A stretch of 59,837 bases of DNA, the filler included. It is 2 parts of 2 records of this genome, joined end to end, with 100 filler letters (N's around TTAATTAATTAA, not from the genome) between each part and the next. Parts side by side here need not be neighbours in the genome. Positions count along the whole stretch, not along the records: positions 1 to 31,933 come from SRR20825019_328; 1 more part is not named here. One strand, given 5' to 3'. The notes under the pieces were generated by a model that saw only the letters and a program-made list of their open reading frames with translations, had not been told where the DNA came from and did not search any database. The stretch's first letter is position 1, and every line of letters starts with the position of its first letter. Shown piece after piece: positions 12,501 to 48,689 of this stretch. The position numbers and the translations under genes were made by a program.

Positions 12501-13487
12501 TCAGCCTGTCCATTGTCTCCCTGTGTTGACTTTCAGAGAAAGACTCGCTAGTTGTGTCTGACCCTTCCACAAGAGAAGTGACATGATCTCTCAATTGATT
12601 AGCCTCGACTTCTTTCCTTGTCATTTCTTGTATTTTCTCTTGAAGGCCCAAAACTAGAGTCCTTTCAACTCGGAGTTTTTCGCCCAAAGCGTCATCAAAA
12701 GGAGCCATTTCATCAAGATCCATCACGCGCCTCCACTTCAGAAGCATGTCGAACTCTGGATTGGACTGTTCGGCGTCGTTGTCAAGAAATTCTGCATACT
12801 TTTCAACATAATAACTCCTTATTTCGGTGTTGCCAACATATTTCAAGAGCATATCTCTGTCCTCTGCGAGGAGATGACACCTTTTTGGACATTGTTCTCT
12901 AGAAATAAACATATTTGACACAGAAAATCCGCTCTCGACACTTGATGGACTTCCGGAACCCACAGAGGAAGGACTTCCACCCGGTGAAATCGGCGATCCT
13001 CCATCTAAGTCTACGAGTCTTTCATGACGTTGATGGGCTGGTTTGCCACTACAAACTAAATAATCACAAGAGGAACACAAGTGATCAGACCCAAAGTAAT
13101 TGTTAAAGAGCTGAGTCCGACTGTATGACATGAAATCAATAGTTGGATTATGAGGAGTCGCGTGCACACATACCAGATTTCTCTCTCAGAGCGGTCTAGC
13201 CTCGAACGGCGACGTAGGCTGGTTCCAAAAAGACGCGGATACGCACTGTACAAATCAGCTTCGCCCTCGGAGTCGTCACTTGACGGTGATCGTGAACTGA
13301 CATCACTATCATACGTTTCCTTTTCATATGGCTCTGCGCTAGATGGCTCTGCGCTAGATGGCATCTTGCCTGTGTCCACCCATCTAGGAACTATTTGTGG
13401 TGGAGCTCCCAGAAGGTCAAGATCGGCTGCAAAAGTGGTGGCTCCTAAGAGTATGAGAAACACGGAAGCTCTCAATATTGTCAGCAT
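9574..13487 (-). CDS. Large secreted atypical Ser/Thr protein kinase-like protein, about 1290 aa (exons 13487-13174, 13120-9574)
   Basis: Signal peptide MLTILRASVFLILLGATTFA. The 53-nt intron 13121-13173 joins in frame to the 1197-aa ORF. Kinase motifs YILK, NEV, HLDLKLDN, KLGDWD, SPPE, DAWSVG. Confidence 0.82.
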
Positions 13488-22153: not shown

Positions 22154-22329
22154 TTCCGCGCTGAGTAGGACTGAAGCTACTATCACCAGACTTGACTATA
22201 CACCTTAAACACTTAGTCGGAAGCCCAGTTATGTAGCACACTCAGCCTTAAAGCTGTGCTCATGGTGTGATGGCGAATGCACATCACTCAAGCTACCAAA
22301 CCCAAAAGATTGTCGCGAGTATCACTGCA

Positions 22330-23060
22330 CCGGCGGACACTCACCGTGTCAGGCGGTGAGTGCTCCCCAATGGACGGGCGACGGTGTTCACGCCGTGATA
22401 CCTCCTTCGCGCCGGCGCCGGAGCGATGGCTCGGTCGCCGGCGCTGTGGCATTGACCGGGGCAGCCAGCCCGCCGTGAACGGTCGTCCCTCCCCGCGCCC
22501 GGCCGGTGTCTTGAGTGGGAGGAGAGCATTCAGGGCTCCATCAGTGCCGGCGGCCGCCCGGCAGGCCCGCGGGATGGCCGTGTTGACTTAAGTTGACAGC
22601 AATCTCGCGTAATCTCAAATAGGACGGGAGTATCGCGGGTTTCTAATTTCCGAGTTCGGCCACGAGCCGGCGGCCGGGCTTCGTGGCCAGTAGGCCGGCG
22701 AGGCGGGGCGGCCCGCGGCGGCCGGGGCACGGACCCGGGCCGGCCCCGCGGGCCGGCGGCGGCGGGCCGGCGCGGCTCCACTACGCCCACGGCGGGCCTC
22801 AGAGCGGGTCCCGCAGGGGCACCGGCCGGGCCGGGGCCGAGGCCGCCGCTCGCGGGCCGCCCGCGGCCCGGCCGCGGCGCCCGCCGCGTGGAGCGGTCGG
22901 AGGCCGAGTTGGGACCCGTCCAGGCACCTCACTGATGGCTACGGGTGGCGAGCGGCGTGGTCTGGACCGGACGTCTGGCCGGTCTTGGGGCCACCGCGGC
23001 CTCCGCCCGCGAGGCCGCGGCGCTCGAGGGACCGCGCGTTCAGTTCGCCAGTCCTGTTCG
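22330..23060. promoter_or_regulatory. GC-rich island in the divergent MORN / calcineurin B promoter region
   Basis: Very GC-rich blocks with a short AT-richer centre near 22585-22650. Confidence 0.6.
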
Positions 23061-23156
23061 GGCCGCATCTTTGCCAGCTCACCACAAATAACGCACCCGT
23101 GCGAGTAGAAGGATTTGACTAGAGAAACCTACACCTACCCGCAAAGTCACAGCACC

Positions 23157-25469: not shown

Positions 25470-26540
25470 TCACCGGACTGCCAGGGCGGCTGGGTTCGGC
25501 AGGCCCCTGTAAGTGTGACCCACAGTGAACGACCGCACGACAGTCGTGTCCGGCGGAAAATCACTCACTGACGACAACCCCGGCCCTGCCGTAGCGGGGG
25601 GACGTGACGGCCCGGCGGCCGGCGGCCCAGTGTCCCTGAGGGGTTTCCGCCGAGCCCGGCGGCCGCCGCGGGAGTCTGCCGTCTGACTCACCACTCGCCC
25701 CGCCGGCCCGGCCGGGGGCCCAGGTCGGCGCAGGCCAGCATCTGTCGCGGGCCCCTGTCGCGGGCCCCTATGCCGGCCGCCTGAGCCCGCGCCGGCCGGC
25801 GGCCCCCAGGCGAGTCGCCGCTCACTGCCGGCTGGCCGGCCGCCGCCGGCCTGCGCGGCCGGCTTGGGGGGGAGTGACTCTGATGAGCGGCCACTGACCG
25901 GCACCCCATGCCGGAGGCTGGCCGTGTCCGGCGGGCTGCGCGGACGGGAACCGCTGGTTGGCGCCCGGGCGCCGGCCAACTCGGAAGGCGGCCTTTGGGG
26001 ACCACCCGGAGCGGGCGTCCCCGGCGGATTTCAAACCTGACTGCCTTGCTGACCAAACGTTTGGCCCCCAAGCCTGAACCGGGGACCGATGGAAGCGCCT
26101 TGGCACCCCGGCCCGGCGTTTGATTTGTTCTCCGTTGTCTCGTTGTTGGACATGTGTAAATCAGGCCGAGGAGGCCTCTCATGACCAAACGCCCTCACCG
26201 AAAGCCCGCGTGTGTGCCGAGGGCCGCAGTGGCAGCCGTCGGATGCGGCCTATCTATCCAATGCACGCCCGGTCAACTCATCATCCCGGAGCGACCCCCG
26301 CCGCCCGGCGAGCGGCAGCGGAGCCCGCGGCCGGGGGCGGCACACCAGGTCCCATCGTCTCAGTCTGAACGTCCTCGGCCGCCGGCGGAGCCTCGCGGCG
26401 CTCTAGTCAGTCACCGGTGTCCCCAAGCGAGCGCTAAACCGGGACCGCTGTGGGTCGCTCGGTCCCCCTTCCGCCGCATACTGCGGCCCTGCCGTGGGCT
26501 GTCACCACGTGTCGGCCCTGAGACCTTGGTGCGGCGACCA
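25470..26540. promoter_or_regulatory. Longest GC-rich island, in the divergent hypothetical / SK channel promoter region
   Basis: About 1 kb of GGCC/CCGG-rich sequence between divergent ATGs. Confidence 0.6.
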
Positions 26541-26624
26541 CCGGCTAACCCACTATTAACACATACTATTTAAGACTGTTTAGGCGGACAGTCCAAGCAG
26601 AGTGGCTGAGCGGCTTCGTGGAAG

Positions 26625-28930
26625 ATGGGTTTCTTTGACCGGCGTCGCAGTCGGTCGAGTACTAGAGGGAACCGACTGGATGACGACGACGACGACGATA
26701 GTACTCACGATATGGAGATGAACAATGTGTTTAGCTCCATGAACAAGTCAAAACCTCTGCTTACTTTTGACATGCTTGGTGGAAACACATCGCAACCGTA
26801 CTGTAGCAATATTGTCCTGTTGTAGCTAACGTCTTATGGTTCCGTTAGTGATTCTCCAACTTTAGCGTCAGATGGCGAGGGTGGCACGGTCCCTCATATG
26901 CGTAAGTCCTATCTAACTCGCTGCTACGCACTGCTATTCACATGCGTCTAGTGCAAAAGAAGCAGCGTTCAGTGCGCACGCTCGACGTGTATGATGTTAA
27001 AGGTCGAAGACAAAGCAGAATGGATGCAGGAAACGCCGCTGAAGCGCAGGCTGCACAAGCTTTTATACAAGCACTGCAAGGCGAAACAACAGTTTCAAAA
27101 CGAGAAATCAGGTCGGCGCTCATTTCTGGCTAGTGGTTCCATCCTCATCTTTATTGCAGAATGATGGTGCCGGAGTTTGACAAGATGGTTAGGACGCGGA
27201 GCTGGACGTCTTTCATTCTGGCTTTGATAACTATCTTCATTCAGTGCATCGAGGTAACTTACCGAGTTCTTCCATTGCTTATCGTTAATGGTTTTATATA
27301 GCTACTTGTCCTGTGGAACGGGAAGATTGAGAAGCCCTCCATTTACACTCAAATGCTCAAGTTATTGAACATAGTTGTATCTATTCTGCTTGTTCTTTCA
27401 TTAATTAGATACTATCGCATTCAAGCTCGTATCGAAGAGAGGAAGTTCTACATTAAGGGTACGTATGACTTCCCACATGGATGCCATGTCAAGTAACAAG
27501 TTGATTTCAGGGTACTCCTTTTCCCTGCTGCGCGCATCTTCTATGAAATGGAGACTCATGGGTGAAATCTTAATATGTTGCATTCAGCCTTGGCCATATC
27601 TGGATGTGCTCACCTCCCCTAAGGGTGGGTTTACCTTCTTGTTCACCTGGCCAATCTAACAATCTGAGGAACAGATCAATACAAACCGTTCCCGTTGTTT
27701 GACGATAAGCTCGGATTGTTTATGTTTATTCGTCTCTATTTGGTGTTCCGTGTCCTTCGAGATACCAGTCCCATTTACAGACGAAGGAAGGAACTCATGG
27801 AGGACCCCAGATATGATGGCCCGAGACTTACGTATGTGACTACTGCCGCTGTCCACCATTACGCCCTGACACAGATCCAGATGGAAGATGTCTGTTAAGA
27901 CTCGGTTGTATCAGAATGCTTTCTATGTTTGCTTTTTCTTTATTACCTTGTGCTTTGTTGTGTGTTCATTCTCCCTGTACATTGCTGAAAGGTACGTGAT
28001 TTCCTCGTCCATGCATGCCCCATCATGCTGAAGTTGTGCCTCAGAGCTGACGATGATGATACAAAGTGGGATGACTACCTCACAAGCTTTTGGGTATGGC
28101 ATATGTTGTTGTACAACTTGCATTGAGTTCACATGAACATTTGCAGTTCATGGCATATACAATGACATCGGGCGAAGCGGTTCCCGAGACCCCTAAGACA
28201 CATCTAGGCTTGTTGTTTGGAGTGGTGGGTGTTTGATACCGTCTGTTGAACTTCCTAACAACCAGACAGGTTGGTGCCATCGTTGGTATTACAGTGACAG
28301 CGATTGTCACTTCTGTCCTAACAAATAAGATGAGCTTGTCGCACCATGAGAACTTTGCTGTAGAATGGGTTCAAGTAGAGAATCTTGGGATTAGGGAAAG
28401 GGATCTTGGGGCTAGATTGATTCAGATGGCCTGGAGGCGCTACGCGAGGCGTAAGCGTCGGGGTGAGAATCCTTCGAAAAGCGTGCGCCGTCAGGAGGTC
28501 AGGGAGGACATTACCTTCCAACTTCTACTGCGCCGTATGATCAAGAAACTCACCAAAACAAGGGCGTAAGTATTGAAAGTGCATTGTCAGCTGTTGTCTA
28601 ATCGCTACATTTAGGAAACTGAGCAATGCTGTGAAATTGAATTCGGATCCTGTAATGATGCATATTCTGGCAGTGGAGTCTGATCTTGATGTATTACAGA
28701 ATTCTGTTAACAAGATCAGGAGCATGTAAGCAGGGTTGATGATGTGGCTTTTTTGATTTGGCTGATGAGTTTCTACTAGGCTCGATGAGGTTGTTGAGGC
28801 TCAAAACAATATGAGAAAGGAGAATGATCGGCGGCATGAGGAGATCTTGGATGCATTATATGAAATCAAGGTGGGCATGAACGGGAAATCGTCAGGAAAA
28901 GCCCGGCGAAGCACAGTCGCAGAGCATTAA
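26625..28930 (+). CDS. SK/IK (KCNN)-like Ca2+/calmodulin-gated channel subunit with non-canonical pore (many short introns)
   Basis: GEILICCIQPWP (S3), LFMFIRLYLVFRVLRD (S4), YIAER (end of S5), YLTSFWFMAYT (pore helix), S6 GITVTAIVTSVLTNKMSL, CaM-binding ARLIQMAWRRY and a C-terminal coiled coil. The 5' exons are approximate. Confidence 0.85.
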
Positions 28931-28977
28931 AATACAGACTTTTGGGACATCTTGAGTTTACAAAATCAAAATGTGCT

Positions 28978-30859
28978 TTAGATCCCGCCAAGGATAGCGG
29001 CAAAGAGCTTGACCAAACGCCAGGACGACGGGTGAGTCATGAATGCAGTAAGCCTGCGGTTGGTCTTAAGGTGGAGAGCACCGTTGGGAGGGAGCCGCTG
29101 CGAGGCAAGATACTCAAATGGAGCCGTCAGAACTTGACGCTCAGGAGAGGAAATCATCATTGCGTTGTGAACCTTGCCAAGCCCCGACTGGATGTCCTCA
29201 AGCGAATGGCCAGGGAATGCTCCCCAAGGCGCACAAGAGTATATCGCACCGAAGCCCCCCCAAATATTGATACCAAGGCTTCCAACCTTGAAAGACTGGG
29301 CGATTTTCTCGAATTCTTCAGCATTGTCCTTCTTTGTCTTGTCATCAATGATGATGGTACCAGTCAGTGTCCCCTGGATTAACGACGATTAATGAAATGC
29401 AAATACAAAAAATTACACTTCATACCCAAATCTTATCATTGGCGACTTCAACGGCCTTCTTCAAAAAGTCCATGGGCCCAGATCCTTCGGGAAGAGTCAG
29501 GGGCATCTCAGTCAGAACACTGCAGAAAGCCTCGTTTTGGGTTGCGTAGTGAGTCTCGTCAATTCCAATCTTGAAAATGCGATCAAACTGATCATTCAGT
29601 TTGCTGTCAATCTTTGGGGCTTCCACGACATCTCCATCATCAACATGCTCGCGGTGGGCCTTCCACATACGCTCTGAGTTGGGGTAGTACGTGCGGACAG
29701 CAGGATACTTGCCCAAGAAATACCTCACACGCTCCAAGAAGCGCTCACGCTAACCATGTCAAAGAATGTTAGGTACAGTGCGCACAATTCACAAGAATGG
29801 ACACATACTTGCGGCCAGGACGCATCGGTAATAATGACCTGAGGAGAGGCACAGATGTGTCCAGCATTGGCCATCTTGCAACACACTAAGTTCTCGGCTT
29901 GCTGGTCGAGCTGCTTATCGGTCCACTTGGCGGGGGTTATCAAGAAGGTGTTGACAGATCCAAGCTCAGCTTCCACCTCCTTGCTGTACTTCTTGCAGCA
30001 AGTCTCCATGTTATTCTTCTGCTCCTTGGGATCGCCCCACACAATACGGTTCACTGAGTGGTGTGATCCAGTGAGAAGCAACCCGTTGGATTCTTCAACC
30101 TTGAGGAGAGCCTGACCTACAGACACGTCTCCGGTAAAGCTAGCCACATAACCTGCAATGACACTTAGGACTCAGCAGTCGAAGAGGAGAGTTCTTGTTT
30201 ACCTCCTTCAACAAGAGGACCCAAAACCTTCTCGATGATGGGAAGGGTCTTCTCGTTGACAGGATTGGCCTTCATGAGGCAAACCTGGTTCTCCACAAAG
30301 AGCGTGGTGAGAACGTCACCAGCCGACTCAAAGTTTCCTAAAAATAGAATCAATACGAATCAAACAGGGAACTCTGAACCACAACACCCATACCAGCAGA
30401 GAGGATAGTCTTCACACCGGCTTCCTTCTTAGTGGGATCAAAGGTTTCGACGTCCTTACCGGGCTCAACCCAAGTCTCAACTTCAAGACCACCAGAAAAA
30501 GCCTTAAAAAGACCAGTATAAGGAAACACCTTAGCGGCTTTTTGATCACCAATAGAGCGAGTGGCCGGCTGCATTGCCTTGCCAGTTTTCACAAAGGACT
30601 CATATGTGTCAATGAGGAAGGTGACAAAAAGTCCCATCATCACTGGACCAAGGAGAAGAGCTTCCGCCTGGAGGTGAGGAATCTCAGGACCGTACGAACG
30701 CTGTTCGCACATGGCTTCACGCCACTCTTCCCCATGCTTCTCAAGGTTCGTCCTAATGGTCTTGAGAATATCAAGGCGTTCGCCATAGCTTTTAGCGGCC
30801 CACTCCTCCTTCTTGGCAACAGTGAGTCTAGCTTTTTCTTCCACACTAAGAGATGGCAT
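28978..30859 (-). CDS. Aldehyde dehydrogenase family protein (multi-exon)
   Basis: Motifs SAGNF (across intron 30338-30393), MKANPVN, LLTGS, catalytic Glu EAELGSVN, catalytic Cys NAGHICASPQ, EAFCSVL. Confidence 0.88.
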
Positions 30860-30959
30860 TGTCGGGTGTTATTTCATCGTTTGATGACCTTGTCATATCT
30901 AACTATAACAGCAGTGAAAGGCACAATGCCGGTCAACTCGAAGAAATTGATAACTAGAC

Positions 30960-31933: not shown

Positions 31934-32033
31934 NNNNNNNNNNNNNNNNNNNNNNNNNNNNNNNNNNNNNNNNNNNNTTAATTAATTAANNNNNNNNNNN
32001 NNNNNNNNNNNNNNNNNNNNNNNNNNNNNNNNN
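31934..32033. other. Artificial contig-concatenation linker (44 N + TTAATTAATTAA + 44 N)
   Basis: Symmetric N runs flank a 12-mer with stops in all six frames. Genome style changes abruptly across it. Confidence 0.98.
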
Positions 32034-33303
32034 GCCGGGAGGCTGTTTTGCAGATACTTATCACTGGAAGGACGGTGTTGGTCCACAAGAAGATCGGCCT
32101 ACCATTGTAAACCGTTGGTGGGGCGGGACCACAGAGGATAACAGCTTTGGGACCCATAACTTTTTAAATCTTTGTGAAGTGCTTGAAGCAGAGCCCTATC
32201 TCTCAGCCAACGTGGGCAGTGGAACCGTGCAGGAGCTTATCGACTGGGTACAGTATACCAATCATGACGGAATTAGTCCAATGGCCGACTGGCGACGTGA
32301 AAATGGAAGGGAAGAACCCTGGAAAGTCAAATATTGGGGTGTGGGCAACGAAACATGGGGTTGTGGCGGAAATATGACCGCGGAGTATTACGCGGACATT
32401 TACCGTCAATATGCCACTTTTATGCCCGGTTGGTCCGGAGAGACCGAAGTGTACAGGATTGCATCAGGAGCGTCTGAAGACGATTATCATTGGACGGAAA
32501 CCTTAATGAAAAATGTACCTCACGAATTGATGGAGGCCGTTGCGCTGCACGATTATGCTGTGTTTGATTGGTCCGATAAAGGTCCATCGGTCAATTTTGA
32601 TGAAGAGATCTATTTTAAAACGATGGAACAGGCACTGAACATGGAAGAATATGTGACCAAGCATATCGAAATAATGGATAAGTACGATCCTGATGGTAAG
32701 GTAGACCTTTTTGTCGACGAATGGGGAGGGTGGTACGATGCCGAACCAGAAGTAGCAAACGGGGTACTTTTTCAACAGAATACCATCCGTGATGTGATGA
32801 TTGCAGGTACGGTGCTCAATACATTTAATAATCATGCCCGAAGGGTCAAAATGGCCAACTTGGCACAAATGGTCAATGTGCTACAGGCAGTGATACTCAC
32901 CGATGAAGAGAAAATGATCAAAACGCCTACATACCATGTCATGCACATGTACAAAGTGCACCATGATGCAAAACTGTTGCCATCCAAAGTTGAAGATAAT
33001 ATAGAGTATAGAGGACTTCCGGTGGTATCCGTATCTGCGTCAAAGGATGAAGCAGGGAAAGTTCATATTTCTTTGGTCAACATTGACCCGGAAAAGGATG
33101 TTGAGGTAGAGGTGGACATTTCCACATTGGAAATTAAAAAGATTGAAGGAAATATTTTGACATCGGAAAAGCTTCAAGATCATAACTCCTTCGACAACCC
33201 AGAAAAGGTGACACCGAAGGAATTTAAGGATGTCAAATTGAAAAAAGGGAAAATCTCCCTCACCATCCCCGCACACTCACTTATAGTCTTACAGGGAAGT
33301 TAA
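32034..33303 (+). CDS. Alpha-L-arabinofuranosidase GH51, 5'-truncated
   Basis: PGGCFAD, FGTHNF, WGVGNETWGCGG (acid/base Glu), VDEWGGW (nucleophile), MANLAQMVNVLQA. The frame is open from the contig start. Confidence 0.95.
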
Positions 33304-33309
33304 GAGAAC

Positions 33310-35286
33310 ATGAAAAAAAATTTATTTACGTTGGCAGGTCTTTTTTTGTTGACCATATCCTGCCAGGAAGAATCCAAAAATCAGGCAGGTGATCAAAGTA
33401 TGGCCGGTAAGTCACCGGACTATCCCATTGAGTCCGTGAACATACAGAATGTAAAGCTTAATGATGAGTTTTGGTTGCCGATCATACAACGTGTTCAGGA
33501 AAAAACCATTGAATATGCGTTGGCCAAATGCCAGCAAGAAGGTCGTTTTGACAATTTTTTGATTGCAGGGGGAGAAATGGAAGGCGAGGTAAAAGGTGCC
33601 ATGCCGTTTGATGATACCGATGTTTACAAAATAATTGAGGGAGCTTCCAACTCACTCATCAGTGCTCCCAATCCCAAATTGGAAAAATTGGTCGATTCGT
33701 TGGTTTCCATTATCAAGATAGGGCAGGAAGCGGATGGTTATTTGACCACATGGCGAACCATTGACCCTGCCAAACCTCCTGCCAACTGGGTAAATGTTGA
33801 CAAAGGGGAACGTTGGGAATCCTTGGCAGCGAGCCACGAGCTGTATAACGCAGGACATTTGTACGAAGCGGCAGCCGTACACTACGAAGCAACCGGGAAG
33901 CGAAATTTTTTGGACATTGCCATCAAAAATGCTGATTTAATGGTAAAGACCTTTGGCGATGGAGAAGGAAAGATCGCTGCTGTCCCCGGACACCAGATCA
34001 TAGAAACGGGGCTCATCAAACTGTATCAGATTACAGGAAAAGAGGATTATCTAAAACTTTCCAAATACTTTTTGGATAACAGGGGAAATCCTGATAACCA
34101 CGACCTTTTTGGAGCTTATTCGCAAGATCACTTGCCCGTTGTGGCACAGGACGAAGTGGTAGGGCATGCCGTAAGAGCGGTTTATATGTACGCTGCCATG
34201 ACGGATATTGCCGCTATTCAAAAAGATACCGCCTACTTGGATGCAGTAAATACGCTTTGGGAGAACATGGTCAACAAAAAAATGTACATCACGGGAGGCA
34301 TTGGTGCCAAACATGATGGCGAGGCATTTGGTGAAAATTATGAGCTGCCCAACCTAACGGCCTACAACGAAACATGTGCATCTATCGGTGATGTCTACTG
34401 GAACCATAGGTTGCACAACCTCACGGGGGATGTAAAATATTTTGATGTTATTGAAAGAACATTGTACAACGGGTTGATTTCCGGACTGTCCCTGGATGGT
34501 CAACAGTTCTTTTATCCCAACGCTCTGGAATCCGACGGTGTTTACAAATTCAACCAAGGAGCATGCACCCGAAAGGATTGGTTCGACTGCTCTTGCTGTC
34601 CTACCAATGTAATCCGTTTTATTCCCGCCATGCCAGGGCTTATCTATTCCAAAACGGGCAATACCCTGTATACGAACTTATATGCGAGCAATGAGGCAAA
34701 GGTGGAATTGCAGAATCAAGACATAATAGTCACTCAAGACACATCGTACCCATGGGACGGGAAAGTTAAATTCACTGTAGAACCAGAGATGGAAGGAGAA
34801 TTTACCGTAAAGTTCAGGATACCTGGCTGGTCCAGGAATGCCGTTTTGCCTGGAGATTTGTATCAATATGTTTCCAAAGATGAAGCAAGCAATAAGCTTA
34901 GCTTAAATGAGGAGGAGATCGATGTGGTTGCTGATAATGGCTATTTCACGCTGACCAGAACATGGAAATCTGGGGATCAGGTGGAATTGGAGTTCCCAAT
35001 GTCCGTAAGAAAAGTGAAGGCCAATCCAGAAGTCGAAGAAGACCTGGGGAAAATGTCCCTTGAGTACGGTCCTATCGTTTATGCGGTAGAGGAAATTGAT
35101 AATAAAAGCACTTTTGATAATATCCGGCTCACTGCCAATGAAGAATTCAAGGTGGAGATGCAGCCCGAATTATTGGGAGGTGTCAAAACCATATCAAATG
35201 AGAAGTTAACCGCCATACCCTATTACGCATGGTCCAATCGTGGTATTGGTAAAATGAAGGTGTGGTTACCTACAGAGGAAAATTAA
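33310..35286 (+). CDS. Beta-L-arabinofuranosidase GH127 (HypBA1-like) lipoprotein
   Basis: Lipobox TISC. Motifs HELYNAGH, GHAVRA, GEAFG, YNETCA, CSCCP (Zn/Cys active site), AIPYYAWSNRG. Confidence 0.93.
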   Translation: MKKNLFTLAGLFLLTISCQEESKNQAGDQSMAGKSPDYPIESVNIQNVKLNDEFWLPIIQRVQEKTIEYALAKCQQEGRFDNFLIAGGEMEGEVKGAMPFDDTDVYKIIEGASNSLISAPNPKLEKLVDSLVSIIKIGQEADGYLTTWRTIDPAKPPANWVNVDKGERWESLAASHELYNAGHLYEAAAVHYEATGKRNFLDIAIKNADLMVKTFGDGEGKIAAVPGHQIIETGLIKLYQITGKEDYLKLSKYFLDNRGNPDNHDLFGAYSQDHLPVVAQDEVVGHAVRAVYMYAAMTDIAAIQKDTAYLDAVNTLWENMVNKKMYITGGIGAKHDGEAFGENYELPNLTAYNETCASIGDVYWNHRLHNLTGDVKYFDVIERTLYNGLISGLSLDGQQFFYPNALESDGVYKFNQGACTRKDWFDCSCCPTNVIRFIPAMPGLIYSKTGNTLYTNLYASNEAKVELQNQDIIVTQDTSYPWDGKVKFTVEPEMEGEFTVKFRIPGWSRNAVLPGDLYQYVSKDEASNKLSLNEEEIDVVADNGYFTLTRTWKSGDQVELEFPMSVRKVKANPEVEEDLGKMSLEYGPIVYAVEEIDNKSTFDNIRLTANEEFKVEMQPELLGGVKTISNEKLTAIPYYAWSNRGIGKMKVWLPTEEN

Positions 35287-35310
35287 TGCATTGAAGATAG
35301 AAAAGAACCA

Positions 35311-36987
35311 ATGAAGAAATATGTAATAGGACTCGATTATGGTTCCGACTCGGTAAGAGCGGTAATGATCGATTCCCAAAACGGAGCGGAACTGGCCTCC
35401 GAAGTATTCTGGTATCCTAGATGGAAAGCACAAAAATACTGTGACCCCGCCATCAACCAGTTTCGACAACACCCCTTAGATCATATAGAGGGATTGGAGC
35501 ATACCATAGCCTCCGTGATGAAGCAAAGCGAGGTGTCCCCAGAAACCGTAAAAGGAATCTGTATCGATACCACAGGTTCCTCGCCAATGCCAGTGACCCA
35601 AGACGGCACTCCATTGGCCTGCAAGGATGGTTTTGAGGAAAATCCGAACGCCATGATGGTGCTTTGGAAAGACCACACCGCTGTAAAAGAAGCAAACGAA
35701 ATCAACGAACTGGCCAGAAGCTGGGGCGGAGAAGATTACACCAAATATGAAGGTGGCATTTATTCTTCCGAGTGGTTCTGGGCCAAAATTCTTCATGTGG
35801 CCAGAGAAGATAAAAGCGTAGTTGATGCTACCCATACATGGATGGAACACTGTGACTTTATCACTTATCTTTTGGCGGATGAAAAAGATTTAAAGGCATT
35901 TAAAAGAAGTAGATGCGCAGCAGGACACAAAGCCATGTGGCACGAAAGCTGGGGCGGACTTCCCGATTCAGCTTTTTTATCAAAACTGGATCCGTACTTG
36001 GCATCACTTCGTGATAATCTGTATCAAGATACATTTACATCGAACGAAGTTGCGGGCCATCTGAACAAAGAGTGGGCGGACAAATTAGGTCTTACTACCG
36101 ATACCGTAATCGCTGTGGGTACTTTTGATGCCCATGCAGGTGCCGTTGGCGCCAAAGTAGACCACCACGCACTGGTCCGAGTCATGGGAACCTCCACTTG
36201 TGACATCATGGTCTCATCCAACCAAGCAGTGGGCGACAAAACGGTTAAAGGCATATGTGGACAGGTCGATGGTTCCGTAATCCCTGGCATGGTCGGTCTA
36301 GAAGCAGGTCAATCCGCTTTTGGTGATGTATTGGCATGGTTCAAGGACGTATTGCAATGGCCAATAGATAACTTGGTTTTAAACTCCGAGGTGTTGTCGG
36401 AGGAACAAAAAGCCGAGCTCAAAGATGAAATAGAATCAAAATTTATTCGGTCTTTGGCGGAACAGGCGGAGGCAATTGCTTTGTCCGAAGTCGTCCCGGT
36501 CGCATTGGACTGGGTAAATGGCAGGAGAACTCCCGACGCCAATCAAGAATTGAAAAGTGCCATTTCTGGAATATCGCTGGGTACGAAGGCCCCCCATATT
36601 TTTAAATCCTTGGTCAATGCCATTTGCTTTGGCGCCAAAATGATCGTGGATCGTTTTGAGGACGAAGGTGTCAAAATCGAGACCGTCATCGGTATCGGTG
36701 GCGTGGCCAGAAAATCACCTTTCATTATGCAGACTTTGGCGAATGTATTGAACATGCCCATTAAAGTTGCAGAATCGGATCAAGCTCCGGCTTTGGGTGC
36801 GGCGATATACGCAGCAGTGGCCGCAGGGATTTATGGAAATGTAATTGAGGCCAGTAAGGTAATGGGAAGTGACTTTGAAGCAGAATATTTTCCGCAAGCG
36901 TCCCAAGTGGAGGTATATGCCCAGTTGTTGGAAGCGTATAAACAGCTTGGAAACTTTGTGGAAGAACAAACGAACAAAAACACATAA
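35311..36987 (+). CDS. araB: L-ribulokinase
   Basis: IGLDYGSDSVRA, LWKDHTA, YSSEWFWAK, CAAGHKAMW, GLEAGQSAFGD, DWVNGRRTP. Confidence 0.96.
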   Translation: MKKYVIGLDYGSDSVRAVMIDSQNGAELASEVFWYPRWKAQKYCDPAINQFRQHPLDHIEGLEHTIASVMKQSEVSPETVKGICIDTTGSSPMPVTQDGTPLACKDGFEENPNAMMVLWKDHTAVKEANEINELARSWGGEDYTKYEGGIYSSEWFWAKILHVAREDKSVVDATHTWMEHCDFITYLLADEKDLKAFKRSRCAAGHKAMWHESWGGLPDSAFLSKLDPYLASLRDNLYQDTFTSNEVAGHLNKEWADKLGLTTDTVIAVGTFDAHAGAVGAKVDHHALVRVMGTSTCDIMVSSNQAVGDKTVKGICGQVDGSVIPGMVGLEAGQSAFGDVLAWFKDVLQWPIDNLVLNSEVLSEEQKAELKDEIESKFIRSLAEQAEAIALSEVVPVALDWVNGRRTPDANQELKSAISGISLGTKAPHIFKSLVNAICFGAKMIVDRFEDEGVKIETVIGIGGVARKSPFIMQTLANVLNMPIKVAESDQAPALGAAIYAAVAAGIYGNVIEASKVMGSDFEAEYFPQASQVEVYAQLLEAYKQLGNFVEEQTNKNT

Positions 36988-36988
36988 G

Positions 36989-37690
36989 ATGAGCTCTACA
37001 TACAAATCGCTTAAAGAAGAATGTTACGAAGCGAACATGGAACTCAATGCCTTGGGTTTGGTCATATATACCTTTGGTAATGTGAGTGCTGTGGACAGGG
37101 AAAACGCTGTTTTCGCGATAAAACCAAGTGGTGTGCCCTATGAGACCTTGAAGCCTGAGGATATCGTCATCATGGATTACGATAACAATGTGGTCGAGGG
37201 CAGTTTAAGACCGTCATCCGATACCAAAACACATAGCTATCTCTATAAAAATTGGGAGAATATCGGTGGAGTAGCGCATACGCATGCCATGTATTCCGTT
37301 TCGTGGGCACAGGCACAAAGGGACATCCCGATTTTCGGCACCACACATGCCGATCATCTTACGCAAGATATTCCCTGTGCACCGCCAATGGCCGACGAAC
37401 TGATCGAAGGAAACTATGAGCACAACACGGGAATCCAGATTTTGGATTGTTTCAAGGATAGAAATTTGGACTATAACGAGGTCGAGATGGTACTGATTGG
37501 AAACCATGGGCCGTTTGCTTGGGGCAAAAATGCGGCCAAAGCCGTTTACAATACCAAAGTGTTGGAAACGGTTGCCCAAATGGCGTATTTGACTTTGCAG
37601 ATAAATCCGCAAGCTCCAAGATTAAAAGATTCATTAATAAAAAAACATTACGAGCGTAAACACGGTAAAAATGCCTACTACGGTCAATAA
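36989..37690 (+). CDS. araD: L-ribulose-5-phosphate 4-epimerase
   Basis: TFGNVS, IKPSGV, PSSDTKTH, HTH, GTTHADH, NHGPF, KHGKNAYYGQ. ATG at 36989. Confidence 0.96.
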   Translation: MSSTYKSLKEECYEANMELNALGLVIYTFGNVSAVDRENAVFAIKPSGVPYETLKPEDIVIMDYDNNVVEGSLRPSSDTKTHSYLYKNWENIGGVAHTHAMYSVSWAQAQRDIPIFGTTHADHLTQDIPCAPPMADELIEGNYEHNTGIQILDCFKDRNLDYNEVEMVLIGNHGPFAWGKNAAKAVYNTKVLETVAQMAYLTLQINPQAPRLKDSLIKKHYERKHGKNAYYGQ

Positions 37691-37704
37691 ATAAATCAAA
37701 ATAA

Positions 37705-39210
37705 ATGAAAATAGCTAAAAAGGAAATCTGGTTTGTAACAGGAAGTCAACATTTGTACGGGCCGGAGACCTTAAAACAAGTCGCGAGCAATTCAAAAAAT
37801 ATTGTTGATGGATTGAATGCAGCTGGAAAATTGCCCGTCACCTTGGTTTTTAAACCCATTGTAACCACACCGCAAGAAATTACCGCTCTCTGTCGTGAAG
37901 CAAGTAACTCCACCTCTTGTATAGGGGTCGTTACCTGGATGCATACTTTTTCCCCAGCTAAAATGTGGATTGCAGGACTCAAGATATTGAGCAAGCCTTT
38001 GTGCCACCTGCACACCCAATTCAATGCAGAGATTCCTTGGGACAGCATTGATATGGATTTTATGAATCTGAATCAATCCGCACATGGTGACCGAGAGTTT
38101 GGATTTATGATGTCCAGAATGCGCAAGAATCGCAAAGTGGTTGTAGGTCATTGGAAAGATGAGCGAGTTCAAAAAAAATTGGCCATTTGGTCGCGAGTTG
38201 CTTTGGGAGTTGATGAATTACAACATATGAAAGTGGCCAGAATTGGCGACAATATGCGAGAAGTCGCTGTTACCGAAGGCGATAAAGTCGCAGCTCAATT
38301 ACGTTTTGGTGTAGCTGTGAACGGTTATGATTCATCCGATATTACCAATATTATCAATGGATTGGAACAAAAAGCCGTTGATCAACTGATCGAGGAATAC
38401 GAAGCCAGCTATAATCTGTCAGAATCGCTTCAAAAGAATGGAGCACAAAGACAGTCTTTGATAGATTCAGCCAGAATAGAATTGGGACTTAGAACCTTCT
38501 TGGACGATGGTGGCTTTAAGGCATTCACGGATACTTTCGAGAATCTTGGAACCCTTAAACAGTTGCCAGGTCTCGCAGTACAGCGTTTGATGGCCGACGG
38601 ATATGGCTTTGGTGGCGAAGGTGATTGGAAAACCGCCGCCTTGACCCGTACCATGAAAGTAATGGCCGAAGGGTTGGAAGGTGGCACTTCCTTTATGGAA
38701 GATTATACCTACCACTTTACACCTCAAAAAGATTATGTTTTGGGCTCGCACATGTTGGAGATTTGTCCTTCCATTGCAAGTGCAAAACCCTCTTGTGAAG
38801 TGCATCCGTTGGGTATTGGTGGCAAGGAAGACCCTGTTAGGTTGGTCTTCGACTCTCCCGCAGGTGATGCATTGAATGCTTCATTGATAGATATGGGCAA
38901 CAGGTTCCGTTTGATCGTGAACGAAGTGGAAGCAGTAGCTCCCATGGCCGATTTGCCAAAATTACCAGTGGCACGGGTACTTTGGGACCCTAAGCCCAAC
39001 TTGGATATTGCCGCAACCGCTTGGATTCATGCGGGAGGAGCGCACCATACGGTATATACCCAAGCGTTGACCACTGAATATATGGAAGATTTTGCCGATA
39101 TTTTCGGAATAGAACTTTTAGTCATAGATTCGGACACGAAACTTAGAGCATTTAAAGATCAACTCCACGCCAATGAAGCATACTATCATTTGTTTCAGCA
39201 TGGAATGTAA
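37705..39210 (+). CDS. araA: L-arabinose isomerase
   Basis: [51 protein letters not shown]. Confidence 0.97.
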
Positions 39211-39230
39211 TCAACTAACTTAAAATTATA

Positions 39231-40418
39231 ATGATGAGGATAACCAAACCTTCTATATTTTACGGGGTTTTACTTTTGGTCTTTACAATTATCAGCTGTA
39301 AGGAAAACAAAAAAGAAAGCCAGTCAGAAATGGAAACTGCAAAAACTGAAAGTACACAAAACCCCATTGAGGAGACCATCTTTGGAGAAATGCCAGATGG
39401 CACAAAAGTGAAAAAATTCACGCTGAAAAATGAAGCGGGAACAGAAGTGGATGTCATTACCTACGGGGGTATCATCACCCGCTGGACAGCTCCAGATAGC
39501 AATGGGGCCTATGAGGACATTGTTTTAGGTTTTGATGATCTGGACCAATATCTTGATGGAAACCCGTTTTTTGGGGCACTTATTGGCCGGTATGGAAACC
39601 GTATAGCCAACGGGAAGTTTTCTTTGGACGGAGAAACCTATACGCTGGCCACAAACGATGGCGATAACCATTTGCATGGAGGAGAGAAAGGATTCGATAA
39701 AGTGGTATGGGATGGAGTTGCCAAAACTACTGAGGAAGGCGCTACCGTTGAGCTTACCTACACCAGTGAAGATGGAGAGGAAGGATACCCCGGAAAATTG
39801 GATGTAAAGGTCACCTATACGCTTACGGATGACAATGCATTGGATATTCAGTATGAAGCTGTGACGGACAAACCAACAGTTGTCAACTTAACGCAGCACA
39901 GTTATTTTAATCTTTCAGGACAACTTTCCAAACCAGTTTTGGACCATAAGATTTATTTGAATGCCGATACCTACTTGCCCGTTGATGGAGGTTTGATTCC
40001 GACTGGAGAATTAAGGAAAGTAGCGGGAACGCCTTTCGATTTCAAGGAGCCGAAACTAATAGGTAAGGAGATAGAGGCCGAAAACGAGCAATTGGGACTT
40101 GGTGGCGGTTATGATCATTGTTGGGTGCTTAATGAGGGTAAGGACAACTTTCGTTTGGCCGCCTCGGCATATCACGAAAAAACGGGACGTTTTATGGAAG
40201 TATACACCAACGAGCCCGCGATTCAGTTTTATAGCGGAAACTTTTTGGATGGAACCTTGCCTGCAAAAGCAGGGGGTACCTATGTCAAGCGTTCAGGCTT
40301 CTGTTTGGAAACCCAACACTATCCAGATAGTCCCAACCAGTCAGATTTTCCATCGGTTAGGCTGAATCCTGGTGAAAAATATACTTCGAGGACCATGTAT
40401 AAATTATCAACCAAATAA
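39231..40418 (+). CDS. galM: Aldose 1-epimerase (mutarotase) lipoprotein
   Basis: Lipobox IISC. Motifs GRYGNRIANG, NHLHGG, NLTQHSYFNL, GYDHC, CLETQHYPDSPN. Confidence 0.93.
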   Translation: MMRITKPSIFYGVLLLVFTIISCKENKKESQSEMETAKTESTQNPIEETIFGEMPDGTKVKKFTLKNEAGTEVDVITYGGIITRWTAPDSNGAYEDIVLGFDDLDQYLDGNPFFGALIGRYGNRIANGKFSLDGETYTLATNDGDNHLHGGEKGFDKVVWDGVAKTTEEGATVELTYTSEDGEEGYPGKLDVKVTYTLTDDNALDIQYEAVTDKPTVVNLTQHSYFNLSGQLSKPVLDHKIYLNADTYLPVDGGLIPTGELRKVAGTPFDFKEPKLIGKEIEAENEQLGLGGGYDHCWVLNEGKDNFRLAASAYHEKTGRFMEVYTNEPAIQFYSGNFLDGTLPAKAGGTYVKRSGFCLETQHYPDSPNQSDFPSVRLNPGEKYTSRTMYKLSTK

Positions 40419-40428
40419 AATAACTGCC

Positions 40429-42048
40429 ATGCAGACATTGGATACGTTTGATTGGGTAGCCATATCCATATACTTTTTGATTCTTCTGGGAATTGCACTA
40501 TGGGTAATCCGTAAAAAGGAGAACAATACCGAAGACTATTTTTTGGCTGGTAGGAATGTAGGATGGTTCGTTGTAGGAGCGTCTATTTTTGCCTCAAATA
40601 TAGGGTCGGAACACGTTGTGGGATTGGCAGGAGCTGGTGCCGGGGACCGTTTGCCCATGTTGATTTACGAAATACAAGCTTGGGTAGTTTTGATTCTGGG
40701 ATGGGTATTCCTGCCCTTTTATGCAAGAGCTGGAGTTTTCACCATGCCCGAGTTCCTGGAAAAACGTTTTGACGCTAGGGCGAGGTGGATACTGTCCGTA
40801 TTCTCCATCGTGGCCTACGTGCTCACCAAAATTTCCGTGACCATTTATGCAGGCGGAATTGTGGTTTCCGCACTCTTGGGCATCGATTTTTGGACAGGTG
40901 CCATTGCAACAGTCGTACTGACTGGAATCTACACAGTGCTGGGAGGTATGAGGGCGGTTGTTTATACCGAGACCCTGCAAGCCGTTATTTTGGTGATCGG
41001 GGCCGCTGCACTTACCTTTATTGGTCTTGATCATGTCGGAGGATGGGAAAGTATGAAGGAAACCGTAACCCCAGAATATTTGAATATGTGGAGAGCAGCC
41101 TCGGATCCCGATTTTCCATGGCCGCCACTTTTGATTGCCAGTACCATTACGGGTATCTGGTATTGGTGTACCGATCAATATATCGTGCAACGTGCATTGA
41201 CGGCAAAGAACATAAAAGAGGGTAGGAGAGGAACCATTTTCGGAGCCCTGTTAAAACTGTTACCCGTATTCTTGTTTTTGATTCCGGGTGTTATCGCCTT
41301 AACACTTAAAATGCGTGGAGAATTACAATGGGACAGTCCTGATCAAGCTTTTCCTGTATTGATGAGCAACTTATTGCCATCGGGGCTTCGAGGACTGGTG
41401 GCTGCAGGTCTGTTGGCCGCTTTGATGAGTTCTTTGGCTTCGGTTTTTAATTCTTGCTCCACCTTGTTTACGGTTGATATTTATAAGAAATTAAGACCCA
41501 ATGCACCGGAAAAGAAATTGGTGCGGACCGGTCAGATTGCCACAGTGATTGTGGTAATCATCGGTATTATTTGGATTCCCATCATGGCCAATATCTCAGG
41601 AGTGCTTTATGAGTACCTGCAAAGTGTACAGTCCTATATAGCACCTCCGATTACAGCTGTGTTCCTATTGGGTATTTTTCATAAGCGAATCAATGCGCAA
41701 GGGGCGTTCGTGACCATGGTGGTCGGATTTATTGTGGGAGCCGTCCGAATTGTACTGGAATTGGTAAAAGATTCATTGAATCCCGATAGTTTCTGGTTCT
41801 TGTTGGGCGATATGAACTTCCTATCGTTTGCATCATGGTTCTTCTTATTCTGTATTATCCTGATTTTGGTCGTGAGCTACGCTACCGCGCCACCATCAGA
41901 AGAGAAACTGAAAAACCTGACCTATGCCACGATTTCCGAAGAGGAAAGAAAGGACAATAAAAATAGCTACAATTGGAAGGATATCGTCATTTCCACCATC
42001 ATCATAGCCATTGTGGTGTATGTAATGATTTGGTTCAACGGAAAATAA
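40429..42048 (+). CDS. Sodium:solute symporter (SGLT-like sugar transporter)
   Basis: YFLAGR, ASNIGSEH, TMPEFLEKRF, WYWCTDQYIVQR, AALMSSLAS. ATG at 40429. Confidence 0.94.
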   Translation: MQTLDTFDWVAISIYFLILLGIALWVIRKKENNTEDYFLAGRNVGWFVVGASIFASNIGSEHVVGLAGAGAGDRLPMLIYEIQAWVVLILGWVFLPFYARAGVFTMPEFLEKRFDARARWILSVFSIVAYVLTKISVTIYAGGIVVSALLGIDFWTGAIATVVLTGIYTVLGGMRAVVYTETLQAVILVIGAAALTFIGLDHVGGWESMKETVTPEYLNMWRAASDPDFPWPPLLIASTITGIWYWCTDQYIVQRALTAKNIKEGRRGTIFGALLKLLPVFLFLIPGVIALTLKMRGELQWDSPDQAFPVLMSNLLPSGLRGLVAAGLLAALMSSLASVFNSCSTLFTVDIYKKLRPNAPEKKLVRTGQIATVIVVIIGIIWIPIMANISGVLYEYLQSVQSYIAPPITAVFLLGIFHKRINAQGAFVTMVVGFIVGAVRIVLELVKDSLNPDSFWFLLGDMNFLSFASWFFLFCIILILVVSYATAPPSEEKLKNLTYATISEEERKDNKNSYNWKDIVISTIIIAIVVYVMIWFNGK

Positions 42049-42079
42049 AAACTTGATATTGGTTGGATTCTTGAATAAT

Positions 42080-42108
42080 AAATGGGCGCTTTTAAAGTGC
42101 CCATTTTT
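42080..42108. terminator. Intrinsic terminator between the convergent symporter and TolC genes
   Basis: AAATGGGCGCTT-TTA-AAGTGCCCATTT stem-loop followed by a T run. Confidence 0.8.
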
Positions 42109-43414
42109 ATATCTGAAGGTTTCCGGCCAATTGTTTTAGGATAATCTCCGAAACCTTTGCCTGGTACTTTGCGTTACTATTTCTAACCTTGGCATTGATA
42201 TAGTTTAATTGGGCTGTGCGGAATTCGATAGTGGGAATGATTCCGATTCTATACTTTTCCACCGTGATATCAAGATTTTCCTTGGCAATGGACTCGTTTT
42301 TTTCCTCCAGTTCCATCAAACTGATATTGGTCAAGTAGGTTTGATAGGTGCTGTTTACCATGGAAGTTAAGCTCTGTTCCTGTTCGGCAATCGCTATTTC
42401 GGCATTCTCCAAGGCAATTTTCCCGATTTTTTCGTTCCTGTTTTGATTGAAACCATCAAATAAGTTGAGGGATGCCCCAAATCCGTAGTTGAAACCATTG
42501 GATTGTGAACGCGTGCTAAAGCCAAGCTCCGAGGTGGAATTTCCGATGTTATAGCCAGTGGTCACATATATTGAAGGATAACGCGAAGCCTTAATTTGTT
42601 TAAGTTGCAATTCACTTATCCGTTTACTTATTTTTTCCGCCTGTAACTGAGGGTTCTCTTCAACCACCTGATTTTCCAATTCTTCAAGGTTCAGCTGTTG
42701 GTCAACAAAAATTTCTGGAATTACCTTAAAATCGATTTTTAAATCGCGGGCCAATTGTTCGTTCAGCAAGATTTTTGTGTTTTTGTGCAGCTCTTGCTGA
42801 CGTTGCATTTGGGTTTTATCCGTGTTCAAGTCAACCTGGGCGTTCAGCACCTCTAATTTTGATGCTTTACCTATGGTAAAACGGTTTTGGGCCAATTCCA
42901 CCCGTTGTTCGGATATCAATAGGGTACTGTCCAAAGCGGAAAGTTGCTGTTGCTGTTGCACCAAATCATAATACGTGGTCATTACATCGCCCACTTTTCC
43001 CAAAATCGCTTGTTTCAGCTCAGCTTCGCCCAGTTTTTCGGTTTCCTTTAGCTGTTCGTAGTTGGCAAACATTCGTAATCCGTCGAAAATGGTCCATTCC
43101 AGGGCAACCCCGTAACTGAGGTTGCTGTTCTTGGCATTATCCCGCTCTACTTCCGTTCCATCTACCCGTGTTTGCGATAGGTTTTGAACACTGTTGTTGT
43201 CCACAATACTGGCAGTGACCTGTGGCAACATGCCTGCCTGACCTGGGGTTACTGCCGTTTCATCCATTCGTAGGTCGTTCTTGGCGGTCTTTATTTGATA
43301 GTTGTTCTCTAGCGCAATCTTTACGGCTTCTTCAACGGTAAGCACTTCTTGAGCATTAGAGTAAAGAGCTGTGGCTAATATTAGTAAGAACAGTAGGTAA
43401 TTTTTAAAATCCAT
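42107..43414 (-). CDS. TolC-family outer membrane efflux protein
   Basis: Signal peptide, LTVEEAVKIALENN, helical repeats. Last gene of an MFP-RND-OMF operon. Confidence 0.92.
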   Translation of the reverse strand: MDFKNYLLFLLILATALYSNAQEVLTVEEAVKIALENNYQIKTAKNDLRMDETAVTPGQAGMLPQVTASIVDNNSVQNLSQTRVDGTEVERDNAKNSNLSYGVALEWTIFDGLRMFANYEQLKETEKLGEAELKQAILGKVGDVMTTYYDLVQQQQQLSALDSTLLISEQRVELAQNRFTIGKASKLEVLNAQVDLNTDKTQMQRQQELHKNTKILLNEQLARDLKIDFKVIPEIFVDQQLNLEELENQVVEENPQLQAEKISKRISELQLKQIKASRYPSIYVTTGYNIGNSTSELGFSTRSQSNGFNYGFGASLNLFDGFNQNRNEKIGKIALENAEIAIAEQEQSLTSMVNSTYQTYLTNISLMELEEKNESIAKENLDITVEKYRIGIIPTIEFRTAQLNYINAKVRNSNAKYQAKVSEIILKQLAGNLQI

Positions 43415-43417
43415 AAG

Positions 43418-46400: not shown

Positions 46401-46504
46401 CTGATTCCTAAAAAGGTATAGCCAATGGCTCCGAAGAGTACAATGGCTATGTTCATAACTATCGCAAGTACAGGCCTTTTTATGCTTAAGGTTGATAAAT
46501 TCAT
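43418..46504 (-). CDS. RND efflux permease (AcrB/MdtB-like)
   Basis: SIKRPV, GLVVDDGIVVTENI, GLVTKNGILIVEFAN, RLRPILMT; 1028 aa. Confidence 0.95.
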   Translation of the reverse strand: MNLSTLSIKRPVLAIVMNIAIVLFGAIGYTFLGIREYPSIDPAIVSVRTNYSGANADIIESQITEPLEKAINSIDGIRNITSSSVQGSSSISIEFNLDKNLEEAANDVRDKVSQAVRSLPEDLDAPPVVSKADSNAERILSMTIQSDNKNILELSDFAENVIAQRLETIPGVSSIQIWGQRRYAMRLWIDPVKLAAYGLTVADVRAALLAQNVELPSGKLTGDNTELTVKTIGNLNTEDGFNNIVIKSDGARLVHLSDIGKASLEGENMETKMTNLGQPMVATAIIPQPGTNYLEIADAFYEEYEQLKKDLPDDISLNIVVDDTVFVRRAVTEVAETLLISIILVILVIYLFFRNWSMAIRPLIDIPVSLIATFFIMWMFGFSINVLTLLAIVLATGLVVDDGIVVTENIYKKVEEGMTPIEAAVKGSKEIFFAVISISVTLAAVFLPVIFLEGFVGRLFREFGVVLSAAVLVSAFVSLTLTPMLNAYLIKPGKQGQSKFYKTTEKFFIQMNESYERALKGFMARKWLSFPLLFACIGVIILFYNLLQKETAPYDDRSYVRLVVNAPEGSSYEYMEKYMDGITQLVLDSIPEAQVGLIMTSPGFGASSVNSGRASIILSEPGERDRSQAEIADEFSKWAKSYVGGRSSVFQRPTISVNKRGGAPLQFIIQAKNFEKLEEKVPEFMAEAEKDPAFSFVDVNLKFNKPELYVTIDREKAESLGVSVLDVAQTLQLSLSGQRFGYFLMNGKQYQVIGQFDKQDRNEPMDLTSIFVKNNDGQMIQLDNLVNTEEHSSPPQLYHNNRYMSATVSATLAPGMSMGDGIEAMERIKDRVLDDTFTTDLGGESRDFVESSSNTAFAFGLAFVLIFLILAAQFESFIDPFIIILTVPMAVAGAMFSLWLFGESWNIFSQIGTIMLIGLVTKNGILIVEFANQLQEENEHISKYQAIMQASVSRLRPILMTSLTVALGALPIAMSLGAASQSRTGMGVVIIGGTMFSLALTLFIIPALYVMWSRKKVQRPEFKTLELT

Positions 46505-46521
46505 AGCTCAGCGTTTACGAT

Positions 46522-47571: not shown

Positions 47572-47620
47572 TTTGGTTTGGTGGCGGTTACGCTGTTTTT
47601 ATATAAAAACAGACGGTTAA

Positions 47621-47628
47621 CAAAGATA
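47621..47628 (-). promoter_or_regulatory. Bacteroidetes -7 promoter box (TAnnTTTG) for the efflux operon
   Basis: The minus strand reads TATCTTTG, 50 nt upstream of the MFP ATG. Confidence 0.6.
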
Positions 47629-47822: not shown

Positions 47823-47839
47823 ATAAAAGCGAAATATCC

Positions 47840-48685: not shown

Positions 48686-48689
48686 GCAA

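Follow-up and report, generated by a model that had tools for sequence, protein, structure and literature searches.

A 59,837-nucleotide stretch of DNA (hereafter the window) carries, at 26625-28930 on the plus strand, a gene of a microbial eukaryote for an SK-like channel whose pore lacks the GYG of K+-selective channels; it has 13 exons and 567 codons. The classic example of K+ efflux gated by calmodulin, which terminates Ca2+ signals, is that of the SK channels, and an earlier note on this DNA had proposed such a channel with its K+ filter replaced. We confirmed that the gene is real and expressed and that its dominant message carries the filter without GYG. As to function, we tentatively favour, at somewhat under an even chance and by analogy with channels of known behaviour, the reading that the window protein would be a cation pore gated by Ca2+/calmodulin but not selective for K+, its Thr-Ser-Gly-Glu filter being reminiscent of the TIGET in channels gated by cyclic nucleotides (CNG channels).

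Protist members of the K+-channel family without GYG are already known; what appears to be new, on sequence grounds, is an SK-type subunit whose whole filter has been replaced by a CNG-like one, and no such subunit is described in the open-access papers that were found. If the reading is true, a glutamate-bearing filter in an SK-type subunit would reverse the sign of Ca2+ feedback. The gene would also be a natural experiment on the minimal changes needed to make a K+ pore non-selective or permeable to Ca2+, a counterpart of the K+/CNG split, and the family around it (GYG forms, a non-GYG clade and this singleton) would provide comparison sets for electrophysiology and structure work.

The spliced message and its pore exon

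The gene model was built manually from a three-frame reading of 26500-29000, joining open stretches at GT..AG sites. Its ATG lies at 26625 and its TAA stop at 28928-28930, and all 12 introns are GT..AG and 45-54 nucleotides long. Public run X1, whose kind is not on record and which contains 0.47 of the sampled words, yielded a contig of 1,702 nucleotides (k-mer depth 28) that spans 26590-28867 and includes codons 1 to about 546. This contig is without any of the 12 predicted introns and has its joints at the predicted borders, including those of 28094-28146 and 28225-28269. The latter two, which flank the pore exon and were predicted in the earlier note, are real introns: they have GT..AG ends and the contig is spliced exactly so. 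Compared with the window, the contig shows no indel and departs from it at just two bases, 26633 and 27010; each is a third-position synonymous change (Phe3 and Arg95) and neither lies in the pore exon. Twenty-three loose letters at the contig's end are presumably Nextera adapter.

An intron-free contig is best explained as RNA-derived; the run kind being unrecorded, a processed DNA copy is a possible but less likely source. That the contig skips all introns at their predicted borders shows expression of the gene, with no splice bringing GYG back, and because no intron exceeds 54 nucleotides, no alternative pore exon can be hidden. Other splicing and missing expression were among the ways in which the earlier note saw its proposal failing; the spliced contig restores no GYG and adds only the two synonymous differences.

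Exon 10 (28147-28224, +) is the pore exon. Its 26 codons complete the pore helix, supply the replaced filter and open S6; its translation is FMAYTMTSGEAVPETPKTHLGLLFGV. Just as the earlier note had read it, GYG is absent and the exon encodes TMTSGEAVPE, in the window and in the X1 transcript alike. These ten codons (residues 361-370) lie at 28159-28188 (+), where alignments show TMTT[LV]G[YF]GD[IY] in the relatives that keep GYG. Neither the window protein nor the spliced transcript has the K+ signature T-x-G-Y/F-G-D, no T..[TS].G[YF]G motif turns up when the window is read in all six frames, and tblastn of the product detects no second copy of the gene within it.

In the same columns the GYG-keeping relatives read TMTTLGYGD (P0004), TMTTVGFGD (P0006) and ATVGYGE (P0005). 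The window protein retains the pore helix (FWFMAYTMT vs VWFTIVTMT) and the spacing to S6. When it is aligned gaplessly to its own relatives, its loop equals the GYG loop in length, with S-G-E-A-V-P-E where they show T-L-G-Y-G-D-I; a hidden Markov model of seven GYG pores aligns it as TMTS, three deleted positions, G-E-A-V and a three-residue insert. The residue register of the filter is thus ambiguous, but the absence of GYG and the presence of the Gly-Glu pair are not. Thr-Ser-Gly-Glu is followed by A-V-P-E-T-P, and compared with the CNG pattern T-[IV]-G-E-T-P-P it is one residue shorter before the Gly, in this same ambiguous register.

This picture could in principle stem from incorrect splice modelling or from a GYG lost through misassembly, and an out-of-frame AFGYGI at 28085-28102, which runs from the end of exon 9 over the intron 9 donor, could be its trace. 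G[YF]G is found at 16 of 64,062 six-frame codon positions in 1-32033, and one at most 10 codons from the pore is roughly a 1-in-100 coincidence; that only about 1% is expected by chance speaks for an artefact. We nevertheless consider this account extremely improbable and largely refuted, since the independent X1 contig shows an identical pore exon sequence and identical joints, and the introns, all of 54 nucleotides or less, leave no space for another pore exon. AFGYGI itself is not used. We take it for a coincidence and rejected it as a hidden filter because it overlaps the Trp codon that opens the pore helix, about 10 residues too early, because it could be reached only via two unobserved splice shifts that run into stops, and because it is missing from the X1 contig. 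A frameshift origin of the filter was likewise rejected, the other two frames of exon 10 (read by eye) being without GYG.

Relatives and filter states in the family

The protein appears to be a member of a sparse, divergent protist branch of the SK/IK (KCa2/KCa3-like) kind. A profile (A2) was made from six channel relatives and exons 6, 7 (trimmed to 27677-27778) and 11 of the window. Its top 11 matches in PDB are all SK4/SK2, at E 2.1e-25 to 2.6e-23, followed by KCNQ5 at 6.7e-15, and the SK match runs from S3/S4 (MFLRLYL..) via the pore and S6 into helices HA/HB (..AARVLQEAWMFYKH..). Searched against a set of 5.8 billion proteins, the profile added nine further relatives. The Pfam family SK_channel (PF03530; gathering score 31.8 bits) is passed by relative P0006 at 34.4 bits, while P0002 reaches 31.2 and P0015 23.8 bits and 12 of the 15 relatives give nothing. 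The SK-type channel of the earlier note is thereby upheld as an SK/IK-type, six-transmembrane subunit, by the profile (in round figures, E 2e-25 to 3e-23) and by P0006. The spliced product aligns with P0002 at 27% identity over 325 residues (129 bits), with P0008 at 29% over 309 residues (110 bits) and with P0006 at 22% over 374 residues (96 bits). Another relative, P0005, carries an amoebozoan label in EukProt.

Single exons give less. Ten single-exon translations were scanned against Pfam, and the only SK match was that of exon 5 (E 0.038, 14.4 bits, under the 31.8-bit cut-off); two others had unrelated weak matches and seven had nothing, and none scored above the cut-off of any Pfam model. 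In phmmer searches of PDB, exon 11 returned 10 sequences at E<=10, nine of them SK4 or SK4/SK2 constructs, and its alignment with SK4 is in register from S6 into helix HA and weak (E 0.07-0.17). Exons 7, 8 and 10 alone had no PDB match at E<=10, and exon 5 alone had no SK match there, only a single irrelevant G-protein-coupled receptor at E 3. A HMMER search of 1.84 billion representatives with exon 11 found seven proteins at E<=0.001 and none at E<=1e-10, six of the seven being channel fragments or full-length channel proteins. P0001, which had the best E-value of that search, is a tandem-repeat protein matched over 39 residues, and it was judged spurious and excluded from the alignments. When longer proteins were searched for homologues of exon 11, none of 383 candidates reached E<=0.001, and scans of metagenome and genome contigs with this exon found no relative. 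Two loci of alignment A4 were also rejected: L003, a coiled-coil protein that has an IQ motif but no kinship to the channel, and the spurious L004.

The helix after S6 is probably homologous to the calmodulin-binding HA/HB region of SK channels. Its core, ARLIQMAWRRY, is conserved and is paired by the profile with AARVLQEAWMFYKH of SK4, and A48, I51 and Q52 of exon 11 (the ARLIQ core) are invariant in nine of nine aligned rows. We call the helix IQ-like after the IQ consensus; it reads ARLIQMAWRRYARRKRR, lies at 28411-28461 (+) and, judged by conservation and the family profile, is the likely calmodulin-binding site. Pfam IQ models match the relatives weakly, always below their cut-offs. The Pfam calmodulin-binding domain CaMBD (PF02888) was detected neither in any of the 15 relatives nor in any of the three exons downstream of S6 (11-13); the alignment of profile A2 nonetheless extends over SK4 residues ~286-354. 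The earlier note had called S3-S6 and the calmodulin region intact, and this stands insofar as the family profile runs from S3/S4 through HA/HB and the IQ-like helix is conserved, but not for the calmodulin region as Pfam defines it. From these sequence features we infer that the window protein binds calmodulin.

Ten of the relatives (P0002, P0008, P0009, P0010 and P0015-P0020) lack GYG and have acidic pore loops. They form a clade with a motif of its own, W-x-x-D-V-[YW]-[DEN]-x-[YHF]-x-P-[IV]-T, which is absent from the window protein. The mean pairwise identity of their pores is 0.54, vs 0.53-0.62 for their transmembrane segments (P0002, P0008 and P0015-P0020). A tree was built from 100 alignment columns that extend from pore helix to IQ helix and leave out those of the filter. 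The non-GYG clade is one side of a 99/97 branch; the window protein lies outside it and groups with the GYG forms and with two fragments, P0003 and P0007. The inner part is otherwise poorly resolved, with 10 of the 12 inner branches open and long branches present. P0007 begins inside the pore (MFCSGD..), maybe through intron read-through by the open-reading-frame caller, and was counted as neither GYG nor non-GYG; P0003 is without the pore region.

Because the supported clade excludes the window protein, the departures from GYG in the clade and in the window protein look separate. The family thus holds at least two different non-GYG states, the window's being a singleton and, beside the GYG/GFG forms and the clade, a third state. 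At E<=0.01 Pfam names no family in six of the eight relatives scanned, and the non-GYG clade appears to be unnamed in the sources.

In two members of this clade, P0019 (residues ~407-863) and P0009 (in its C-terminal part), S6 and the IQ helix are separated by an insertion whose first residues are CLAEGTLV and which, in P0019, ends VVHNC. Pfam Intein_splicing matches at E 5.8e-5 and 23.4 bits, short of its 35.8-bit cut-off, so that an ion-channel gene may here contain an intein.

What the altered pore might conduct

We tentatively read the pore as non-selective and Ca2+-binding because its Thr-x-Gly-acidic pattern resembles that of CNG and NaK channels. Four subunits would form the pore, and gating would be as in SK channels, by Ca2+ via bound calmodulin. 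The Thr-Ser-Gly-Glu filter would be unable to build four K+ sites and would pass Na+ and K+ with little selectivity, like CNG (TIGET) and NaK (TVGDG), and the ring of glutamates would bind or pass Ca2+. The outcome would be a Ca2+-activated depolarising or Ca2+-entry conductance in place of a hyperpolarising K+ conductance.

Published work gives this some background. According to PMC3082925, high K+ selectivity depends on the four contiguous sites of T-x-G-Y-G. Only the inner two or three sites are present in NaK (TVGDG) and in CNG channels (TIGET, then prolines), which are non-selective and whose acidic filter residue serves in Ca2+ binding and block. PMC5052707 describes NaKTs of Tsukamurella, with a K+-channel fold and an unusual filter, as a Ca2+-dependent non-selective cation channel.

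Several points weigh against a CNG-like, non-selective pore. With no PDB match at E<=10 for the isolated pore exon, the likeness to CNG channels is a four-residue pattern; its Thr-Ser-Gly is one residue short of TTIG, and its register is ambiguous. The window's own link to SK channels consists of weak single-exon matches (E 0.038 and 0.07-0.17) plus transitive homology, and CaMBD goes undetected in the relatives and in exons 11-13. Searches of some 15 billion proteins and of contig collections returned neither an orthologue with this filter nor a paralogue of the protein. Finally, the signature-less channel TbIRK still prefers K+, with PK/PNa >7, according to PMC5429665 and PMC9799330.

A more far-reaching claim can be made, and we regard it as rather unlikely in its entirety. 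It holds that a CNG-like filter turned an SK scaffold into a Ca2+/calmodulin-gated, Ca2+-permeable non-selective channel, giving positive-feedback Ca2+-activated entry of Ca2+ or Na+ in an amoeboid protist. The protist SK-like family would then have departed from K+ selectivity at least twice, separately and with the result maintained: here and in the conserved WxxDVY..PITW clade of 10 proteins.

The main rival to a non-selective pore has its precedent in the "silent" subunits of Kv channels. The window protein would be non-conducting as a homotetramer and would join SK-like paralogues that keep GYG, altering their selectivity, conductance or trafficking. We judge this unlikely. GYG/GFG members do exist in the family (P0004, P0005 and P0006) and the window protein groups with them on the tree, but no paralogue lies within the 32 kb of eukaryotic sequence, which leaves the partner hypothetical. 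Kinetoplastids offer a parallel: PMC3283738 places GYG forms of KCa2/3-like channels beside GYX paralogues that are "likely non-selective or non-functional", and PMC9799330 reports TbK1 and TbK2 as heteromeric K+ channels. The loop of the window protein, however, retains its length, its Gly and two Glu beside an acidic turret, which suggests a remodelled rather than a relaxed permeation path.

Loss of channel function would also explain a filter without GYG, with the protein either drifting or kept for Ca2+/calmodulin sensing or as a scaffold. The exact filter without an orthologue in about 15 billion proteins or the contig collections and the pore exon without a PDB match are what such a protein might show, yet we consider it improbable. 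Decay of the gene is unlikely because the 567-codon frame is intact over 13 exons, the splice sites of the 12 introns are canonical and the message is spliced, at depth 28. Both differences in X1 are synonymous, though two sites are too few to weigh, and the family-invariant G6, A48, I51 and Q52 of exon 11 are kept. The pore of the non-GYG clade, as conserved as its transmembrane segments, further shows that the family maintains non-GYG pores.

More improbable still is a channel that prefers K+ through a non-canonical filter, for which TbIRK is the model, keeping PK/PNa >7 without the signature (PMC5429665 and PMC9799330). TbIRK, however, has a glycine-rich GGYVG, whereas the window filter has only one Gly and, in the gapless alignment, places Glu, Ala, Val and Pro at the G-Y-G-D positions. 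High K+ selectivity is moreover held to need four contiguous sites (PMC3082925).

Gene layout, surroundings and comparison with known systems

All parts of the gene lie on the plus strand. In the manual model, exons 1-5 occupy 26625-26797, 26849-26901, 26952-27111, 27160-27253 and 27302-27458; exons 6-9 occupy 27511-27624, 27675-27831, 27881-27991 and 28045-28093; and exons 10-13 occupy 28147-28224, 28270-28565, 28615-28725 and 28780-28930. The first 130 residues are unrelated to SK/IK channels. S1, S2, S5 and S6 were placed by hydropathy, and S3, S4 and the linker by alignment to relatives. S1 and S2 (residues ~143-200) fall in exons 4 and 5 (27160-27458), and exons 6-8 (27511-27991) cover S3 to S5, with a weakly charged S4 (FMFIRLYLVFRVLRD) and a long linker between S4 and S5; the family profile matches this stretch to MFLRLYLIARV of SK2/SK4 chains. 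In SK2 and SK4 the S4-S5 linker contacts the N-lobe of calmodulin.

Exon 9 (28045-28093) supplies ADDDDTKWDD, an acidic turret, and the residues ..YLTSFW with which the pore helix begins; the S5-S6 loop as a whole has nine acidic and three basic residues. Intron 9 (28094-28146; 53 nucleotides, GTATGG..TTGCAG) and intron 10 (28225-28269; 45 nucleotides, GTGGGT..AGACAG) are both of phase 0, and intron 10 is in frame but has a TGA stop. The earlier note had misplaced one exon border, setting it after HLG; the real one follows LLFGV. Exon 11 (28270-28565) starts VGAIVG and encodes S6 and the post-S6 helices that correspond to HA/HB of SK channels. Exons 12 and 13 (28615-28930) encode a charged C-terminal tail of coiled-coil type, and a Pfam scan of exons 11-13 detected no cyclic-nucleotide-binding domain at E<=1.

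A convergent neighbour gene with short introns (28978-30868, -) ends about 50 nucleotides from the channel stop, and a second X1 contig, of depth 81, begins at 28936. Just upstream of the channel gene are two GC-rich stretches, 22200-23130 and 25470-26200 (56-57% in 2-kb windows), which are open in several frames on both strands and look like low-complexity or repeat DNA. Elsewhere on the eukaryotic contig are two long open frames, one at 4627-6516 (+) with a Metallophos match (E 1.4e-10) and one at 9574-13167 (-) that matches a protein kinase weakly, its 30.7 bits lying slightly below the cut-off.

At 31934-32033 a run of N surrounds TTAATTAATTAA, a spacer with a stop in every frame, so the window is two contigs artificially joined. 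The second contig (32034-59837) is bacterial, and 32034-52000 is 100% identical to contig C2 of the 4.4-Mb genome G001, which has 43% of the window's sampled words in common. Positions 26500-29000 go unmatched in G001, which represents the second contig's bacterium and is not kin of the eukaryote. Because the second contig matches this bacterium, a eukaryote and a Bacteroidota-like bacterium are present within one assembly. The bacterial contig holds an arabinan/arabinose utilisation cluster (Alpha-L-AF_C, GH127, an FGGY kinase and AraA), an AcrB-type pump and a SusC/SusD pair.

Among known channels, those of the SK/IK kind share with the window protein six transmembrane segments, a weakly charged S4, an aligning MFLRLYL-type motif and a long S4-S5 linker, as well as an S6 whose downstream helices are alignable with HA/HB of SK4; SK4 and SK2 are the best solved relatives of the profile. 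The window protein differs from them in being without T-x-G-Y-G-D and in having no Pfam CaMBD, with an IQ-like ARLIQxxWRxY helix in its place. The non-GYG clade has the same architecture and the same helix (ERDLAARLIQxxWRNY) and supplies the best full-length matches of the window protein (27-29% identity), but it has its own conserved pore motif and forms a group without the window protein.

The KCa2/3-like channels of kinetoplastids are likewise SK-like channels of protists, with IQ motifs just after the last transmembrane segment, and PMC3283738 lists paralogues with the altered filters GYRD, GYSD and GYSE beside GYG forms. Those paralogues keep G-Y, whereas the window protein has all six signature residues replaced, and the two are likened by description, not by sequence. 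TbIRK and NaKTs show that a K+-channel fold without the signature can still conduct cations (PMC5429665 and PMC5052707). They differ from the window protein in architecture, being Kir-like and a bacterial two-transmembrane channel respectively, and in filter sequence, and thus serve as functional precedents only.

CNG and NaK pores have the same order of Thr-x-Gly-acidic after a pore helix of the K+-channel type, with prolines soon after (PMC3082925). The filter of the window protein is one residue shorter between TMT and Gly, its pore exon has no match to solved chains, and the protein is without a cyclic-nucleotide-binding domain. Its likeness to CNG and NaK channels would be convergent, not by descent.

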